Positions 3,043-62,871 of a stretch of DNA of 64,000 bases are shown here, piece by piece. A model generated the notes under the pieces. That model ran no database searches, was not told the origin of the DNA, and was given only the letters and a program-made list of their open reading frames with translations. Made by a program: the position numbers and the translations under genes. Each line of letters begins with the position of its first letter. The stretch's first letter is position 1. Origin of the DNA: an uncultured Candidatus Saccharibacteria bacterium (GTDB lineage Bacteria; Patescibacteriota; Minisyncoccia; Minisyncoccales; UBA5738). The DNA lies in NCBI GenBank assembly GCA_964603475.1, contig CAZRVG010000001.1, positions 63,988 through 127,987 of the forward strand. Direction: 5' to 3'.

Positions 3043-3084
3043 GTCGAGGTTTCACCTTGCAAGCTTGCAAGGTGAAACCTCGAC
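3043..3084. repeat. 42-bp perfect palindrome (gtcgaggtttcaccttgcaag|cttgcaaggtgaaacctcgac) between MIPS and CDP-OH transferase genes
   Basis: read directly; zero-loop perfect inverted repeat centred on AAGCTT. Confidence 0.9.
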
Positions 3085-3095
3085 AGTTCAACAAT

Positions 3096-4220
3096 TTAAC
3101 GGTCGCGCTTCCCGGCGATAAATTCTTCCACCATCTCATAGGCTTGAGAATCGGTAAATTGAGTCGGGGGGTGCTTCATAAAATAGGATGACGGACTTGT
3201 TAGCGGGCCGCCGATTCCCCGATCTTGGGCAAGTTTTACCATACGGATGGCATCAATCACCACGCCGGCAGAATTGGGCGAATCTTCCACGCTCAAACGA
3301 AGCTCCAAATCAATGGGCACATCGCCGAATTTTCTTCCCTCCATTCTGATATAACAAATTTTGTTATCTTTTAAAAACGGCACCCAATCCGACGGCCCGA
3401 TATGCAAATTGTCATAGCTCAAGCGATTTTTGAGCTGGGACTCCACGCTTTCGGTTTTGGAAATTTTTTTTGATTTCAAGCGTTCGCGGCTAAGCATGTT
3501 CAAAAAGTCGGTATTGCCGCCGAAATTCAATTGATAAGAGCGATCAATCGCCACGCCGCGGTTGGCGAATAATTTGCTAAGCGTTCGGTGCACGATCGTG
3601 GCGCCAATTTGCGATTTAATGTCGTCGCCGATGCAGGGAATGTTTTTTTCTTTAAACTTATTCCCCCACGCCTCGTCGGAAACAATAAATATCGGCATGC
3701 AATTGACAAATCCGCAGCCGGCGTCCAAGGCGGCTTGGGCGTATTGTTCGGCGGCTTTTTGCGACCCCACCGGCATATAGCTGATTAAGACGTCGGCTTT
3801 GACCTTTTTTAACTCTTCGGCGATATCAACCGGCTTTTCATTCGAAACCGCGAACGTTTGGTCTTCGGGGTAATTTTTCATATGATCGGCGACACCGTCC
3901 AACACCGGCGCCATTTGCACTTTCACGCCGATTTGAGGCACGTCTTTGCAAAACACTTTGGTACAGTTGGGCTTTTCAAAAATCGCCCGCGCCACATCTT
4001 TGCCCACCTTGCGCCGATCAATATCAAACGCCGCCACGATCTCAATATCCCGCGGCGCGTAATCGCCGATCACGTTGTGCATCAAGCCGGGCACGGTTTC
4101 ATCGTCCTTGCCGATATATTTATAATAAGTTATCCCCTGCACCAGGCTGGAACAGCAATTGCCGATGCCGGCAATCGCCAACCGAATTTTTTTTCCTCGC
4201 GCGTTTGTATTTTCTTCCAT
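3096..4220 (-). CDS. myo-inositol-1-phosphate synthase (archaeal/bacterial short type)
   Basis: Rossmann GIGNCCSSLVQG, conserved MIPS core (NGSP-like, SYQLNFGGNTDF region); ORF open to 4292 but Met at 4220 fits family length. Confidence 0.8.
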   Translation of the reverse strand: MEENTNARGKKIRLAIAGIGNCCSSLVQGITYYKYIGKDDETVPGLMHNVIGDYAPRDIEIVAAFDIDRRKVGKDVARAIFEKPNCTKVFCKDVPQIGVKVQMAPVLDGVADHMKNYPEDQTFAVSNEKPVDIAEELKKVKADVLISYMPVGSQKAAEQYAQAALDAGCGFVNCMPIFIVSDEAWGNKFKEKNIPCIGDDIKSQIGATIVHRTLSKLFANRGVAIDRSYQLNFGGNTDFLNMLSRERLKSKKISKTESVESQLKNRLSYDNLHIGPSDWVPFLKDNKICYIRMEGRKFGDVPIDLELRLSVEDSPNSAGVVIDAIRMVKLAQDRGIGGPLTSPSSYFMKHPPTQFTDSQAYEMVEEFIAGKRDR

Positions 4221-4778: not shown

Positions 4779-5450
4779 ATGGAAAATAAAGAGATTTCCG
4801 ATAAATTTTTGGAAATTGCCCGATTGCTGGAAATTAAGGGCAATGAAACGTTCAGAATAAAGGCATATCGCAAAACCGCCGCGGTTTTGAATTCCTTGGA
4901 GCAAAATGTTGCCGACATTTACAAAAATTTGAAAATCAAAAAAAATTTCAAGATTGCCGGCATCGGAGAAAAAAATATTGAAAAAATAAAAGAATATATT
5001 AAAACCGGCAAAATCAAACGATTTGAAGAATTGATGGAAGAAACCGCCATCCGTCAAATAATCACCTATTTTTTTGAAACTAAGGGAGTAAATCTCGACG
5101 AATTAAAACAAAGCGCGCGCAAGCGCGATATCGTCTATTCGCGATACACCAAGCCGGCAAAGCAATTGATCGAACTGGCCGGATCGGTAGCCGCGGCCAA
5201 AGATGCCATAAAAAAAGTCGCCGATTGGGCGAATTCACGCAAATTGGACTATGCCATTGAAACAGTATTTAAAAAGTGGCTGGAATTGGACCGATTGAAA
5301 CCCAAAGAGATCGTCAAAAAGCCGTTTTACCGCGGCGATCCCATGGTTTGGTCGGAAAACCGCAAAAAGTGGTTTGTCATCACCGACGGCGGCGAATGGC
5401 TGGAATATGCCGATAAAGAAGAGCTGATTGAATGGCGAATTATTGACTAA
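4779..5450 (+). CDS. PolX-like helix-hairpin-helix DNA-binding protein (8-kDa/HhH N-terminal domains of DNA polymerase beta family, no palm domain)
   Basis: FLEIARLLEIKGNETFRIKAYRKTAAVLNSL...IAGIGEKNIEKIKEYIKTGKIKRFEEL matches PolX lyase/HhH motifs. Confidence 0.55.
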   Translation: MENKEISDKFLEIARLLEIKGNETFRIKAYRKTAAVLNSLEQNVADIYKNLKIKKNFKIAGIGEKNIEKIKEYIKTGKIKRFEELMEETAIRQIITYFFETKGVNLDELKQSARKRDIVYSRYTKPAKQLIELAGSVAAAKDAIKKVADWANSRKLDYAIETVFKKWLELDRLKPKEIVKKPFYRGDPMVWSENRKKWFVITDGGEWLEYADKEELIEWRIID

Positions 5451-15697: not shown

Positions 15698-15832
15698 TAT
15701 ACCAGCTATGCTGTTATTCTTTATGTAGAAGCATGCAATAATAACTTTGAGCGCGCTTCGGTGCTCCCCCGGAGAATCCGGGGCTTCAGCCGGGGAATTC
15801 CACGCTCTCAGATCGCTGCTTCAACAAAGATC

Positions 15833-36319: not shown

Positions 36320-36470
36320 AAATCACTAATTTTCAATTACCAGTTTTCAGTTTTCAATGAATGATCATTTTGTCAATTAGCCAAACAGAAATGCTGAATT
36401 TTGTTTGAAAATTGATTCATTGAAAATTCAATGAAAATTGGCAATTGAAAACTGAAAACTGTTGGTGTTC
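36320..36470. promoter_or_regulatory. Family 2 intergenic element upstream of hrcA
   Basis: reverse complement of the 35461-35600 copy core. Confidence 0.65.
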
Positions 36471-36477
36471 TCATTCT

Positions 36478-36795
36478 ATCACTCTCAAATTATCAGTCAA
36501 CCCTCGCGAGTGATAATCCGGCAGTAGAGACGCGGCGCGCTAAAGCGCAAAAACACAGAGCCGCGCCACACTGCCGGACAAGTCCCCATGGTGCGAAATG
36601 CCTTTTGTTGAAGTCAATTTTCAACGAGCGCGTTGAAAATTGACTTCAACAAAGTGGTCAACGAAAAAGCTGCGACCTCGCCAAACTTGCATTTTGATTC
36701 TATCTTTGTATTCCCGGGGCTTACCCTCGCAGCTTATCCCGAGGTAATCCGAGGGATACTCGCGAGCGGTTAGACCCCTTCAACAGCATTTTTTC
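36478..36795 (+). ncRNA. rnpB: Structured non-coding RNA candidate, possibly a reduced bacterial RNase P RNA
   Basis: long-range pairing cctcgcgagtgat (5') with atactcgcgagcgg (3') as a P1-like helix; GGAcAAGUCC..CCAUGG resembling the GGAAAGUCCGGGCUCCAUAGG region; 3' CCCGGGGCUUACC resembling CCCGGCUUAUCG; 20-bp hairpin gttgaagtcaattttcaacg/cgttgaaaattgacttcaac; no ORF. Confidence 0.35.
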
Positions 36796-37170
36796 CTTGG
36801 CAAATTTATAACAAAAAAACCGCCTCTCGGCTTCATTTATTATTGTCAAAATTTCAAGATGATATGTGGAGGGTAGCAACTATAACGCCTACCCTCCGCA
36901 AAAGTCAAACGACCTGCAAAGTCGAACCAACGATTCAATATCCTTATTCAATTTCTTTCTTCAAATCTCCTTATTTGCCCTCCTTTCAACACATGCGGCC
37001 AACGCTTCTGCGCCGCCGCAACTCCATCCCCACCTCGCGGGAGCGGATCGCAGACTTTTTCCAAAATCCGCGCTCCGCTCCCGCAAAGCAAATGATAAAG
37101 AACTATTTTCTAACCTGTTAAAACATTAATAGCAAATTCCCGTATTTCTGTAAAGACCCTTTATCCCCAA

Positions 37171-38312: not shown

Positions 38313-38742
38313 CTCCTATATCGCTTGGTTTAATTATATATGGTTTTCCGGGCCAAATATGATCCAAAATATCCATGATCATTATTCTCGCATTTGCCCC
38401 GCCATACATATCGCGTAGATGCGCGATACGCCGCCTTGTCACCAAATCTTTATCATAATTGACAATTTTTTCCGGCGACATTAACACATATAAATTTGAA
38501 TCAAAATCAAGCGATTTGTGAAATTCGTTCGGTCTTATCCATAGCCTATACCACCAAAGTAGAGCCCCCCCATTCCAAACTTTCATCTTGATTAAAAATA
38601 ATTGTCGATTGCAAACCATTATTAATGTTTTCGCAAGCAACAAAGACTCAATTTGAAATTTCTGGAATTTAGAACGCTCGTCCCTTGGAATCCTAGATAA
38701 ATCCAGCAATAACATATCTATCCCGTTTCGCATATTTACCAC
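38227..38742 (-). CDS. Hypothetical protein (overlaps previous ORF; possibly one frameshifted gene)
   Basis: 171-aa ORF ending in a Gly/Ser-rich tail inside the next ORF. Confidence 0.3.
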   Translation of the reverse strand: MVNMRNGIDMLLLDLSRIPRDERSKFQKFQIESLLLAKTLIMVCNRQLFLIKMKVWNGGALLWWYRLWIRPNEFHKSLDFDSNLYVLMSPEKIVNYDKDLVTRRRIAHLRDMYGGANARIMIMDILDHIWPGKPYIIKPSDIGGGESGGKSSSGEAGLSENQANGCAGGDS

Positions 38743-38853
38743 TCCATTCTTCGACTTTTTTAAAGGTGCGAATTGAGCTTGCGGCGCGAAAAATCGCGCG
38801 AAAGGCTCGTTTTGAGATTAAAATAAATTCCCCTTTCCGTCAAGCGTTTTAAC

Positions 38854-39034
38854 GGTAACCATTCACTGGGAGTTTCATTCTCCCTTTTTTAAAGGGAAAC
38901 TTGCCCTAAGGCGTTTGGCGAATGGGTGCCCGTAGGGCGAGGGATTTGAATTTTAAATCCTCCGGCGCGATTACGCGCCACCTCCTTTTCCAAAGGAGGA
39001 ATAGATACAAAATGCCAGCCCCAGTGAATGGTTA
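38854..39034. mobile_element. Element bounded by 16-bp near-perfect terminal inverted repeats (gtaaccattcactggg / cccagtgaatggttac) with four internal hairpins; MITE or structured RNA
   Basis: read directly; internal hairpins ctccc-ttttttaaa-gggag, gagggattt...aaatcctc, ggcgcg-atta-cgcgcc, cctcc...ggagg. Confidence 0.5.
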
Positions 39035-39096
39035 CTTTTAACAGAATCATTATTCGCTTATTCGTGCGAATATGCCCATAACTTCAATCCAACAAA

Positions 39097-39265
39097 AACA
39101 TTCCAACATTTTGCCCTGTCGCGCACCGTGATTTGCCCTTGTATTTTTATGCTTTAGCATGGCAAATCTCTGATGCGCGAAGAATGTTGGAATGTCCGCT
39201 ATCGGGCAATGCCATATATTCCATATGGAATATAGAAAGTCCGGTGAGGCTTGATCTCACAGAAT
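39097..39265. mobile_element. MITE-like element, family 1, copy D with tail carrying the attccatatggaat palindrome and ccggtgagg...ctcac hairpin
   Basis: aacattccaacatttt...agaatgttggaatgtccgctatcgggcaatgccatatattccatatggaatata...tccggtgaggcttgatctcacag. Confidence 0.65.
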
Positions 39266-39321
39266 CCAAAATGATTATATGATTGTATGATTAGATGTTT
39301 AAATGATTAAATGCCCGCCAA

Positions 39322-49276: not shown

Positions 49277-49342
49277 AAAGGTCGTTCCTTGCTGGCTTGT
49301 CCCGATTACGCCCGAGGAATAATCGTCAAGGCGCGACCTTGA
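49277..49342 (-). promoter_or_regulatory. Conserved 65-nt three-hairpin leader element abutting the gatC start codon (copy 1; RNA-level cis-regulator candidate)
   Basis: minus-sense tcaaggtcgcgccttg-acgattattcctcgggcgtaatcggg-acaagccagcaaggaacgaccttt; second copy at 59923-59988 with loop-only changes. Confidence 0.5.
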
Positions 49343-49378: not shown

Positions 49379-49603
49379 TTAAACAATGTTCAATATTGCC
49401 AATCGCGATTGATTTTCTTTTTCTTCCAAGACCAGCTCAATCGCCTCGCGGATATTTGCCATTGCCTCATCAATTGTTTCTCCTTGCGTAAAACATCCCG
49501 AAAAAAGCGGGCATTCAATCACGAAAAACCCATCCTCGCCTTTTTCAACCAGCAAAGGAATTTTCTTGCCCTGATATTTTTGATAAATATTTACCTCTTC
49601 CAT
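49379..49603 (-). CDS. HicB-like (UPF0150) antitoxin-family protein, orphan (no adjacent HicA)
   Basis: PLLVEKGEDGFFVIECPLFSGCFTQGETIDEAMANIREAIELVLEE. Confidence 0.6.
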   Translation of the reverse strand: MEEVNIYQKYQGKKIPLLVEKGEDGFFVIECPLFSGCFTQGETIDEAMANIREAIELVLEEKENQSRLAILNIV

Positions 49604-49879: not shown

Positions 49880-50038
49880 CTCTTCTTCTTTTTTTTATAC
49901 AAACGCCTCCGATACATGGAGGCGGGTTGATTCGTATTTATTCTTAAATCTTAAATCCTAAATCTCATCTCTATTTTCATTCGCAAATGGTGAGGTGCAA
50001 ACCTCGGCGATTACGCCGAGGATTGACCTCCCCGTTTG

Positions 50039-51148
50039 CTATTTCGGTGGTTCCAATTCTTTGGTTTCAATGAGCACTTCGCGCAGTTGATCCAGATTTT
50101 CCAGCACCATTCCCGCGCCGCGCACCACGGTGGTTTTGGGATCTTCCACGGTTTTCACCGGCATTCGGGTCTCCTTGGCGACCAATTCATCCAAACCGCG
50201 CAGTTGGCTTCCCCCGCCGCACAAATAAATGCCGTTGGCCATAATATCGGCGACAAGTTCAGGCGGAGTTTCTTCAATGGCCATTTTTATTTCGTGGACA
50301 ATTTGGCGCACCGATTTATCAATCGCGCGCCGAATTTCCTCTTCGCAAATCACGATTTCCTCGGGCAAGCCCGTCACCAAATTGCGGCCGCGCATTTTAA
50401 AATCGCGCTTTATTATTTTTTCTTTTTTGTTTCCGGAAGTCGCTTTTTTGGCGTTATCATTTTTTTCCGCGGTATAAGCCAGCCCGATGCCGATTTTGAT
50501 ATTCTCGGCCATTCGTTCGCCGATAAGCAATTTATATTCTTCTTGCACAAATTGCATAATATCCTCGCACAATTTGTCTCCGGCAATACGCAAACTTTTT
50601 CCCAAAACGATGCCTCCCAAAGAAATCACCGCGATTTCGGTGGTGCCGCCGCCCAGATCAACCACAAAATTGCCTTGCGCTTCCTGCACCGGCAGGCGAA
50701 TTCCGATTGCCGAGGCCATGGGCTCGTCAATCAAAAACACTTCCCGCGCCCCCGCCGATTTGCCCGCGTCAATCACCGCCTTTTTCTCCACTTCGGTCAC
50801 GCCGACGGGCACGCCCACAATCACGCGCGGGCGCAAATTAAAAAGCAATTTTCGCTTGCGGGATTTCTCAATAAAATAGCGAAACATCTGTTCGGTCACC
50901 TCAAAATCCGAAATCACGCCGTGGCGCATCGGCCGCACCGCGACGATATGCGAGGGGGTGCGCCCCACCATTTTTTTCGCTTCCTCGCCCACCGCCAAAA
51001 CCTGGCCGGTTTTTTGGTTCACCGCCACCACGGATGGTTCCAGCATCACAATCCCCCGCTCCCGCACATAAACCACGCAATTGGCCGTGCCCAAATCAAT
51101 GGCCATATCCTCGGAAAAAAGTTTTGTTAAATTATTCCAAAATTTCAT
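50039..51148 (-). CDS. mreB: Rod-shape determining actin homologue MreB
   Basis: IDLGTANC, DLGGGTTE, actin-fold phosphate and adenosine motifs. Confidence 0.85.
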   Translation of the reverse strand: MKFWNNLTKLFSEDMAIDLGTANCVVYVRERGIVMLEPSVVAVNQKTGQVLAVGEEAKKMVGRTPSHIVAVRPMRHGVISDFEVTEQMFRYFIEKSRKRKLLFNLRPRVIVGVPVGVTEVEKKAVIDAGKSAGAREVFLIDEPMASAIGIRLPVQEAQGNFVVDLGGGTTEIAVISLGGIVLGKSLRIAGDKLCEDIMQFVQEEYKLLIGERMAENIKIGIGLAYTAEKNDNAKKATSGNKKEKIIKRDFKMRGRNLVTGLPEEIVICEEEIRRAIDKSVRQIVHEIKMAIEETPPELVADIMANGIYLCGGGSQLRGLDELVAKETRMPVKTVEDPKTTVVRGAGMVLENLDQLREVLIETKELEPPK

Positions 51149-51163
51149 CCTAACATTTATCAA

Positions 51164-59339: not shown

Positions 59340-59581
59340 AATTCCTTTACATGAATTGCATATGGCTTGCGCATAACTTGATTATACCAAACCCAAACAA
59401 AAAAACCACCTCCCACCGGCGGAATGTTTGCGTTCTTGAGGTCGTTGCTTGCCGATTATCCCGAGTTTTTGCGAGCGATAACAAAATTCTCACATTTTTT
59501 GCGACCGCAAAAAATGTAAGATTTCAATAAAAAAGAAGCACCTTCATCCAATCTCCCAAAAAAAGAAATGAATGAAAGCAC

Positions 59582-59896
59582 CTAACATGAGGATGACTTT
59601 TTGAGCCTATCCTCTATATCCCTTAACATTGACAAGAGATGGCACCTATCCATAAGATTGATTCCATCTAGGATAGATTTTTTGAATATATTCGCCAACA
59701 ATATGGCGATTTGGTCAATAATTACCTCATGAAACCGCCATGCCTTATATGTTTCACCCCTTTCAAGATGCCCAAACATCTCAGTCGCTACAATTTCTAT
59801 CGAACTTGTGTCCAAATGAAATCCTCCTAAATTAGGATAAACACATTTTGCAGGTTTTGTCAAATTTATTTTTGGCAATTTATTTTTGGCAATCAT
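59582..59896 (-). CDS. Hypothetical small protein (true start probably TTG near 59815 after an AGGAGG; ORF-track N-terminus is a translation artefact of the leader element)
   Basis: coding-like region ...VATEMFGHLERGETYKAWRFHEVIIDQ...; TTGACAaaacct -35-like box upstream. Confidence 0.3.
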   Translation of the reverse strand: MIAKNKLPKINLTKPAKCVYPNLGGFHLDTSSIEIVATEMFGHLERGETYKAWRFHEVIIDQIAILLANIFKKSILDGINLMDRCHLLSMLRDIEDRLKKSSSC

Positions 59897-59922
59897 ACAC
59901 TGGGGATATAAATAAAAGTTGG

Positions 59923-59988
59923 TCAAGGTGGCACCTTGCCGATTATCCCTCGGACATAATCGGGACAAGCCTTCAAGGAACGACCTTT
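59923..59988 (+). promoter_or_regulatory. Conserved 65-nt three-hairpin leader element, copy 2, at the predicted 5' end of the PEGA-gene transcript
   Basis: tcaaggtggcaccttg-ccgattatccctcggacataatcggg-acaagccttcaaggaacgaccttt; TTGGCA, 16 nt, ATAAAT promoter-like boxes end about 8 nt upstream. Confidence 0.5.
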
Positions 59989-60081
59989 GAATTTCAAATC
60001 CCTCCTTTTCGTTTCACTCAAAGTGCTCCCTTTTCCAAAGGGAGAATCAATGCCGGCTTGGATGGTTGAAAAAATGGGGCG

Positions 60082-62019: not shown

Positions 62020-62254
62020 ACTGAAAATCATCTCCGGCAAAGAACTCGTCAAAATTCTTGGCGATTTTGGTTTTGCTATTGCCGGACGCAAAGGAAGCCA
62101 CATTAAATTAAGACGAATTACTGCCGATTCGCGGCAAACGCTCACCATACCCGACCATCAAGAATTGGATAAAGGAACATTAAAAGCGATTTTCAATCAA
62201 GCCGCCAGATATATCCCCGATAACGAACTGCGTAAATATTTTTATTCCGAATAA
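62012..62254 (+). CDS. hicA: HicA family mRNA-interferase toxin
   Basis: GKELVKILGDFGFAIAGRKGSHIKLRR...TIPDHQELDKGTLKAIFNQA; 8-nt overlap with hicB; start is an internal Met of the listed 138-aa ORF. Confidence 0.7.
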   Translation: MPKLKIISGKELVKILGDFGFAIAGRKGSHIKLRRITADSRQTLTIPDHQELDKGTLKAIFNQAARYIPDNELRKYFYSE

Positions 62255-62263
62255 CACCACAAA

Positions 62264-62300
62264 AAACGGGGTACAGATTAAATCTGCACCCCGTTTTTTT
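62264..62300 (+). terminator. Intrinsic terminator after hicA
   Basis: acggggtacagat-taa-atctgcaccccgt then T7. Confidence 0.65.
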
Positions 62301-62361
62301 CATTTCAAAATTAATTCACCATCTATTCACTAATTCGCGCGAATAGGCCTGTAGCAAGAAA

Positions 62362-62473
62362 CTTGGATTGAAGCGCGGCGCGCGGAATCCGAGCGGATCC
62401 CCGAGGAAAGATTTATCCTCCGTAGCTTTACGCGAAGGAGGGGTTTGGCACCGCTCCCCAATCCAAACATCCC
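62362..62473. repeat. 112-bp direct repeat, copy 2
   Basis: identical to 61610-61721. Confidence 0.9.
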
Positions 62474-62871
62474 AACCGATTTTCGCGTTGAAATTTGGAA
62501 GGTCTGTCCTCGGCGTAATCGCCGAGGTCTGCCCTTGCCAAATTTCGCATTTCAACCGCCGGCTATAAAACACTTTGCGCGATTTGCATTTTACCCCCCT
62601 CACAATCACAAACAAACAAAAATCCATTCCACCTTTCGCACGAAACATCCCATCCCCGCGTTTCAAAAAATACCTCCCCTGCCAAATTCATCCAAAGCAT
62701 AATTTGGCTTTATTATCGCGCTTTGCCGTGTCAAAATTCTGCTGCCAGATCCTCTGATTCAAGTCACAATCTTTCAATTATGATCTGAATAAAGAATGGA
62801 AGTTTTTAAAAAATGAGATGCTTCCGAAACTCTTAACCCTTCCGCGCGAAACCACTCGCACAGATTAAAAC

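Follow-up and report, generated by a model that had tools for sequence, protein, structure and literature searches.

Among miniature inverted-repeat transposable elements (MITEs), the Correia elements of Neisseria, the enterobacterial ERIC elements and the pneumococcal RUP and BOX elements carry a structured cargo, and the single-strand HUH transposases of the IS200/IS605 type recognize imperfect hairpins with conserved mismatches. Bacterial stem-loop repeat families have been catalogued (PMC2267715). A survey of repetitive extragenic palindromes (REPs) and bacterial interspersed mosaic elements (BIMEs) describes REPs as multi-copy, extragenic, imperfect palindromes of 20-40 bp that bear, at one end, a GTAG or CGTC tag left out of the pairing, and places classical REPs close to the 3' terminus of the gene upstream (PMC3733652). 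Here we analyzed a 64,000-nt stretch of the genome of an uncultured Candidatus Saccharibacteria bacterium (assembly GCA_964603475.1, contig CAZRVG010000001.1, positions 63,988 to 127,987), called the window below. An earlier note on this DNA had described a leader of three side-by-side hairpins in two copies, one before gatC (49277-49342, minus strand) and one before a gene for a PEGA-domain protein (59923-59988, plus strand), and had read it as a selected RNA structure such as a riboswitch, a protein-binding leader or a thermosensor rather than a DNA repeat.

We found that both copies belong to a family of intergenic foldbacks with covarying stems, mixed orientation, patchy presence among relatives and some decayed copies; a minority of the family's copies lie in MITEs. 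The element is probably, at odds of roughly two in three, a long-form copy of a dispersed, multi-copy hairpin repeat, a REP/MITE-like mosaic of a Patescibacteria clade.

A dispersed, multi-copy family in Patescibacteria

The two elements named above, copies A (gatC) and B (PEGA gene), are homologous and lie where the earlier note had placed them: 58 of 66 bases are the same (87.9%; blastn, E 1.7e-14), and a 32-nt degenerate pattern of the core matched the window at exactly these two sites and none of 100 shuffles. The homology extends some 10 nt past each end of the intervals given above, reaching AAAAGTT in the 5' direction and ..TNCAA in the 3' direction, and spans about 84 nt.

A family pattern built from the window copies and from the corresponding copy of a relative (L008; the loci retrieved for this work carry L numbers) was scanned against species-representative genomes. 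This gave 37 matches in 35 DNA stretches, nearly all of them from Patescibacteria bins; one bin contributed at least 11 and two more contributed 5 apiece, and two matches (L011 and L038) look like chance. Pattern and covariance model together identified about 49 unique copies in the retrieved loci, from about 15 Patescibacteria bins labeled Minisyncoccales, Paceibacterota, Nomurabacteria and 'Saccharibacteria'. With several copies per genome the element is a dispersed repeat, contrary to the view that it is an RNA structure rather than a DNA repeat, and its variable core shows greater similarity among copies from one bin (0.76) than among those from different bins (0.60). The count of two copies was too low for the window as well, which holds the two long forms and 4-6 further diverged or broken members, roughly one per 10-15 kb.

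The search pattern had 21 fixed bases and the genomes were partial. An exact pattern of the 3' half, TCGGGACAAGCCNNCAAGGAAC, had no match in genome contigs, and its sole match in a metagenome contig (L001) was rejected as chance, lying inside a high-GC coding region. The metagenome scan missed a JGI contig that contains the exact pattern (L003, Ga0172382_10024120), so that the scans were not exhaustive and absence from them is no proof. Viral contigs had no matches to the short-form or the long-form pattern. An all-against-all BLAST of the 400-nt flanks, made for a longer conserved element 5' of the hairpin, returned only orthologous coding sequence and other small repeats, and the spurious open reading frames (ORFs) through the long form had no matches in a set of 5.8 billion proteins. 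The earlier note gave one and the same translation for both window sites; the two antisense peptides are similar, not identical (LSRLRPRNNRQGATL in copy A, (M)SRLCPRDNRQGATL in copy B).

No Rfam family matches either copy. At the gathering score, Rfam 15 gave nothing relevant for the element in the window and 16 loci, and at E <= 10 it gave nothing relevant for the two long copies and one short copy. The only Rfam matches in the window were one DUF3800-V RNA and five tRNAs.

One nested hairpin with covarying stems

The minimum-free-energy fold of copies A and B is a single nested hairpin, not three hairpins side by side. It consists of an outer helix AAGGUCG/CGACCUU, a 2x2 internal loop, an inner helix CCUUG/CAAGG and a tip helix CGAUUAU/RUAAUCG. 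The core of copy A runs from 49340 to 49278 on the minus strand in the hicB-gatC spacer, with the outer helix at 49340-49334 and 49284-49278, the inner helix at 49331-49327 and 49291-49287 and the tip helix at 49325-49319 and 49309-49303. Its internal loop is CG/AA, the predicted fold has -24.1 kcal/mol, and it folds about equally on either strand (z ~ -2.4). With its flanks it is matched by the covariance model at 49364-49262 (61.7 bits, E 2.9e-15). The core of copy B runs from 59925 to 59987 on the plus strand (outer helix 59925-59931 with 59981-59987, inner helix 59934-59938 with 59974-59978, tip helix 59940-59946 with 59956-59962), has a predicted fold of -19.6 kcal/mol and is matched with its flanks at 59903-60003 (57 bits). 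A C to G change at 59930 leaves a G.G mismatch in its outer helix, so the differences between A and B are not confined to loops or pairing-neutral positions, as had been claimed.

The usual form of the family is a 38-nt imperfect palindrome, AAGGUCG-CA-CCUCGSCG-AUUA-CGSCGAGG-AA-CGACCUU, with a 7-bp outer helix, a CA opposite AA loop, an inner helix of 5-8 bp and a GAUUA-type tip; the stems are stable (-19 to -27 kcal/mol). The inner helix drifts in sequence and stays complementary. The long form is rare and has an insertion of about 25 nt at the tip that adds a small hairpin. It is known from five sequences (copies A and B, L045, L018 and a relative at 36716-36778 of the window); the added hairpin has a U.C mismatch in L045 and L018 and pairs UAUCCC/GGGAUA instead at 36716-36778.

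Covariation was assessed on an alignment of 36 sequences and then on a covariance-model alignment of 47. With the nested structure 95% of cells are paired, as opposed to at most 45% when the partners are slid; 9 of 15 pairs show compensatory change, and none of 500 shuffles reached the observed covariation score. This bears out the conserved foldback with retained pairing that the earlier note had seen. It is the nested helices that covary, however, and not the three-hairpin set. Columns 37 and 75 are near-perfectly coupled (CG in 28 sequences, UA in 15), and the inner helix CCUCG/CGAGG of L008 is a compensatory change relative to CCUUG/CAAGG in the window; only the nested helix explains either. 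The proposed first hairpin needs columns 25 and 37 to pair, and in 24 of the 45 members these form an A.C mismatch. In a DNA palindrome, templated repair can also produce compensatory changes, with no selection acting on RNA. Of 47 copies, 39 have CA/AA as their internal loop. Covariance-model scores on the forward strand are about twice those on the reverse strand; the family therefore has a definable orientation, and its asymmetry is conserved.

The idea that the third hairpin might sequester the gatC start region finds no target, as the last helix contains neither a Shine-Dalgarno sequence nor a start codon. A Shine-Dalgarno-like tetramer precedes only 4 of the 62 genes called in the window (gene calls for all loci were made by a codon-usage-based heuristic of this analysis), so that the genome is essentially Shine-Dalgarno-free; the absence of such a sequence before gatC is thus normal and leaves nothing to sequester. 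Start regions are A/U-rich with repeated GAAAAYUGAAAA-type words, and the A/U-rich flanks of the element resemble ordinary start regions of this kind.

Mixed orientation, coupled to position, and patchy presence

Almost all copies (43 of 48 unique ones) are intergenic. About 14 lie in the sense orientation and about 16 in the antisense orientation between co-directional genes, and 3 each lie between divergent and between convergent genes. Copies A and B are both sense to the downstream gene and in its 5' leader, as the earlier note had it, with the gatC ATG (49268) 9 nt past the end of A and the ATG of the PEGA gene (60082) indeed 94 nt past the end of B. Over the family, orientation is close to 50:50, which does not fit a gene-linked sense leader; further copies in random orientation were what the earlier note itself had named as speaking against its reading. 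The genes after sense copies are functionally unrelated. They encode S12 (rpsL), L27 (rpmA), Hsp70 (dnaK), dCTP deaminase (dcd), RRF (frr) and GatC, as well as a class II aminoacyl-tRNA synthetase, a POR gamma-like (iorB-like) subunit and the PEGA protein.

Orientation is nevertheless coupled to position: sense copies hug start codons (8-51 nt 5' of them, apart from copy B) and antisense copies hug stop codons, 12 of the 16 between co-directional genes lying -2 to 60 nt past one (Fisher p 0.0025). In the same vein, the 3' side of the element abuts a gene boundary (median 42 nt) and its 5' side faces a long run of non-coding DNA (median 295 nt; Wilcoxon p 0.002). Copies occur in tandem in L017 and L036, separated by the element's own conserved flanks. 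The iorA-iorB-like spacer holds back-to-back pairs about 450-580 nt apart in L043, L029, L045 and L034, and two antisense copies in L017. In the same spacers (L043 ~3640-3740, L029, L045 ~4780-4880, L034) we noted a second repeat type with the look of a classical REP, GTAG-tagged GTAGGGGCG...CGCCCCTAC, which adjoins the hairpin family.

Presence at a given gene varies between relatives. The gatC leader has the long form in the window and a short form, CAAGGTCGCACCTCGCCGATTACAGCGAGGAACGACCTT, in L008 (GatA 75% identical), where it directly follows a promoter-like TTAACA-17-TATTAT. No element precedes gatC in the syntenic relatives L009, L046, L048 and L050, and the relative represented by L009 and L010 has the same promoter as L008 without the element. 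Nor is there one before the PEGA-gene orthologue in L010, where the spacer is 69 nt as opposed to 742 nt in the window. In L046 and L048, 10-20 kb of sequence is free of copies. L050 resembles the window in having a copy in the MreB-like/HicB spacer, and it carries another before frr. Separately, a promoter-like TTGTCAAGGTT(A/G)(A/G)C, 17 nt, TAnnAT recurs upstream of different genes (L008 9452-9490, L009 8880-8917, L021 and L032).

Carriage by MITEs

Several copies are nested between inverted 17-nt repeats, GTAACCAYTCACTGGGG. All four intact pairs of these terminal repeats are flanked by direct repeats of 6-8 bp, as is characteristic of MITEs, and two of the four enclose a family hairpin. The window itself contains one such MITE at 38855-39035 (plus strand; 181 nt), with terminal repeats GTAACCATTCACTGGG(A/G), the direct repeat TTTTAAC and three small hairpins, one of which (GGCGCGATTACGCGCC) has the family's GCGAUUACGC tip. 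Its homologues are found in L033 (1062-1242, direct repeat TGGAGCTG), which also carries three small hairpins, and in L036 (61-173, direct repeat CTTGATG) and L031 (3257-3368, direct repeat GACATA), whose cargo is the family hairpin.

Copy B is contained in a decayed MITE-like composite of 181 nt (59889-60069, plus strand) that aligns with the MITEs at window 38855-39035 and L033 1062-1242. The left repeat GCAATCATACACTGGGG (59889-59905) matches at 14 of 17 positions, internal homology runs through TTTGAATTTCAAATCCCTCC and a small hairpin CTCCCTTTTCCAAAGGGAG at 60026-60044, and the right repeat CCGGCTTGGATGGTTGA (60053-60069) is degenerate; the composite has no recognizable target-site duplication. 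The promoter-like pair reported before copy B, TTGGCA-16 nt-ATAAAT, does exist at 59886-59913 but is not listed by a consensus promoter scan, and its TTGGCA '-35' is the start of the left terminal inverted repeat. A tandem duplication at 59864-59893 (ATTTATTTTTGGCAAT twice with a 2-nt overlap) runs into that repeat. Copy A has neither terminal repeats nor a target duplication. In all, about 8 of the 49 hairpin copies keep recognizable terminal repeats; the hairpin module is also found on its own and within a second type of MITE cargo.

Further members in the window and side observations

A short form, GAGGUGCAAACCUCGGCGAUUACGCCGAGGAUUGACCUC, lies at 49992-50030 (plus strand; 27.6 and 33.7 bits, E 4.5e-6, in two covariance-model searches; -25.2 kcal/mol), 8 nt past the stop of an MreB-like gene (50039-51163, minus strand) and antisense to it. 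It is also present in L002, and the copy of L050 in the same spacer has the same orientation. A canonical terminator-like hairpin with a T-run follows at 49924-49904 (minus strand). A second short form, AAGGGCAGACCUCGGCGAUUACGCCGAGGACAGACCUU, lies with canonical flanks in a long non-coding stretch at 62499-62536 (minus strand; 35.2 and 41.9 bits, E 2.4e-8) and recurs in JGI contig L052. The diverged long form at 36716-36778 (minus strand), read by eye and not called by the covariance models, has another outer stem, GGGGUCUAACC..., and the same tip module, GAGUAUCCCUCGGAUUACCUCGGGAUAAGCU.

Broken members are found as well. At 36594-36701 (minus strand; 19.6 and 24.9 bits) the canonical 5' flank and stem start, AAAAUGCAAGUUUGGCGAGGUCGCA at 36695-36671, are followed by an unrelated 20-bp hairpin (36650-36607) that replaces the interior. 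A half copy at 59436-59465 (plus strand) consists of one arm, TTGAGGTCGTTGCTTGCCGATTATCCCGAG, with a 15-nt exact match to copy B (E 0.004), and also matches the 3' arm on the other strand. A perfect 36-nt palindrome at 3046-3081, GAGGUUUCACCUUGCAAGCUUGCAAGGUGAAACCUC, is a distant relative of ambiguous orientation (37.1 bits on the plus strand, 28.2 bits on the minus strand; -27.3 kcal/mol). Further stretches of the window's genome yielded no new copies.

Elsewhere, copy A is identical in three other assemblies of the same species (L002-L004). By its GatA matches, the organism is a Patescibacterium near Minisyncoccales or Nealsonbacteria-like bins. Two members, L042 3490-3526 and L027 3055-3090, apparently lie inside long ORFs (349 aa, and 677 aa on the other strand). 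The bin of L027 is labeled Pseudomonadales and that of L029 Gastranaerophilales, which may be binning errors.

Four stretches of the window, 36320-37170, 38313-39321, 59340-60081 and 62020-62871, are unusually long non-coding DNA (740-1000 nt) for a streamlined genome; the hairpin copies, the MITEs and further small hairpins lie in them. A gene for a HicB-like antitoxin (49379-49603, minus strand) separates the MreB-like gene from gatC. The content of this interval varies in syntenic relatives: L008 has a Polbeta-domain gene there, L050 has both HicB and HicA, and L046 has no gene. The DUF3800-V RNA (RF02964) lies at 15727-15823 on the plus strand (69.5 bits against a gathering score of 37.4), opposite to both of its minus-strand neighbors.

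Comparison with described systems

The family has the size, multi-copy nature and extragenic location of REPs and lacks their tag. As in REPs and BIMEs, an imperfect palindrome is present in many copies, almost all intergenic, in both orientations and as singletons, tandems and inverted pairs; mismatches orient the hairpin, mosaics with other small motifs occur, and many copies lie just past stop codons and are plausibly transcribed as RNA hairpins. Unlike in REPs, no GTAG or CGTC is found at the feet, the flanks being ..GUUU(G/A)(C/U)C and UUAAAU.., and between co-directional genes roughly every second copy lies close to the start of the downstream gene. Copy number in the window is modest, and Patescibacteria are not among the phyla surveyed in PMC3733652.

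Like MITEs and the catalogued stem-loop repeats, the family includes short, non-autonomous units bounded by terminal inverted repeats and target-site duplications, has stem-loops in 5' and 3' untranslated regions that are presumably co-transcribed with their neighbors, and varies in presence between relatives; it differs in that only a minority of copies have terminal repeats and that the hairpin also stands alone. The ends of IS200/IS605 elements resemble it as imperfect hairpins with conserved mismatches and short flanks, and solitary copies without obvious target duplication would fit them too. However, there is no TnpA or TnpB gene nearby, and a 57-kb co-directional block shows no strand bias, the copies at 49278 (minus) and 49992 (plus) being 650 nt apart. 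The riboswitches and leaders of Rfam share covarying pairs and the sense position that copies A and B occupy in 5' leaders; they differ in that the family is a single hairpin rather than a junctioned aptamer, precedes unrelated genes and has half of its copies antisense.

Other candidates were rejected. The copies are dispersed and do not form a CRISPR or other regular array with unique spacers between regularly spaced repeats, and attC sites, type III toxin-antitoxin repeats, DNA uptake sequences and kink-turns, by their generally known features, misfit in core sites, spacing, density or loop geometry.

Discussion

The multi-copy nature of the element, its two orientations and its scatter over intergenic DNA argue that it is not a riboswitch-like leader for gatC. 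We favor instead a repeat that would spread or persist as mobile or mosaic intergenic DNA, some copies traveling as internal MITE cargo, presumably moved in trans by a transposase. Either selection for the foldback or templated repair within a strand may maintain the complementarity. Where copies are transcribed, as in the gatC and PEGA leaders, they would form a stable stem-loop of -20 to -25 kcal/mol at 9 or 94 nt before the start. Any effect on the gene would probably be generic, such as protection or processing of transcript ends or damped access of ribosomes, and not ligand or temperature sensing tied to gatC.

Several findings weigh against this repeat reading. Most copies, copy A included, have no recognizable terminal repeats or target duplication, and a crude motif scan of about 0.45 Mb from partial genomes revealed no REP-associated or IS200-type transposase. 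The conservation of the outer stem is partly a matter of construction, owing to the 21 fixed bases of the search pattern. The hairpin of copy B is intact where the surrounding MITE has decayed. The same site has been retained across species, both before gatC (window and L008) and in the 5' untranslated region of the iorB-like gene, where it is common to five bins with 81-88% coding identity. The asymmetric CA/AA loop is kept, and the coupling of position to orientation is not what pure selfish spread predicts. Retention at the same sites, the intact hairpin, the loop and the coupling together hint at selection on the hairpin itself.

These are the observations on which a possible, though rather unlikely, alternative draws: that the hairpin is a selected, portable RNA or single-stranded DNA structure, the binding or cleavage site of a lineage-specific protein. 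It might be an RNase III-type processing site, a 5'-end stabilizer or a translation modulator in a system that dispenses with Shine-Dalgarno sequences; the outer stem and the CA/AA loop would be what the protein recognizes, the inner stem would merely pair, and mobile elements would only deliver the hairpin. A covarying inner stem beside a near-invariant outer stem and internal loop suits this proposal, as do the conserved asymmetry and the sense copies that stand downstream of promoter-like sites, shortly before the start codons of housekeeping genes. It sits less well with the roughly half of copies that are antisense to local transcription, where the RNA would present UU/UG and not CA/AA, and with the syntenic relatives in which these genes lack the element. 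Apart from the loop-adjacent pair, wobble statistics favor neither strand, outer-stem conservation is subject to the search-pattern effect noted above, and the partner protein is hypothetical.

A broader version of the same idea strikes us as improbable. Here selection would act on the hairpin as a portable module of untranslated regions, specific to the phylum, whose invariant outer stem and CA/AA loop are read by a putative Patescibacteria protein (a nuclease, a chaperone or an HUH enzyme). In a translation system without Shine-Dalgarno sequences, sense copies would be kept 8-50 nt before housekeeping starts and antisense copies just past stops. If true, the family would act across the genome as a signal, post-transcriptional or in single-stranded DNA, and mobile elements would do no more than spread it.

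It is very unlikely that the family consists of factor-independent or bidirectional terminators reused at 3' ends. The antisense copies just past stop codons and the stability of the stems would be in keeping with such a role, but in neither orientation does a U-tract follow the stem, the flanks being UUAAAU.. or GNCAAACUU.., and the 49992-50030 copy is followed by a separate, canonical GC-hairpin with a T-run; these two points make the terminator reading weak. Many copies, moreover, lie between the promoter and the start of essential genes, where a terminator would be harmful.

We give hardly any credence to a three-hairpin, cis-regulatory leader (riboswitch, thermosensor or autoregulatory site) serving gatC and the PEGA gene, for although both window copies are sense in 5' leaders, the L008 copy follows a promoter-like site before gatC and the three helices can be drawn in both copies, the family forms a plain hairpin that lacks both a junction of several helices and a conserved pocket, lies in both orientations before unrelated genes and after stops, mispairs the first hairpin in most members and is missing before both genes in relatives; we regard a gatC-specific riboswitch or thermosensor as all but ruled out.

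Full-text searching of the literature found no description of this family, which is not proof that none exists, and the present account is apparently the first documentation of a REP/MITE-like mosaic repeat system in streamlined Patescibacteria genomes. It removes one false riboswitch candidate. Such repeats inflate intergenic DNA and put stable stem-loops into the leaders of essential genes, and both motif searches and genome binning can be led astray by them. That orientation is coupled to position, and that the hairpin outlives its carrier, hints that hosts may have recruited a mobile hairpin.

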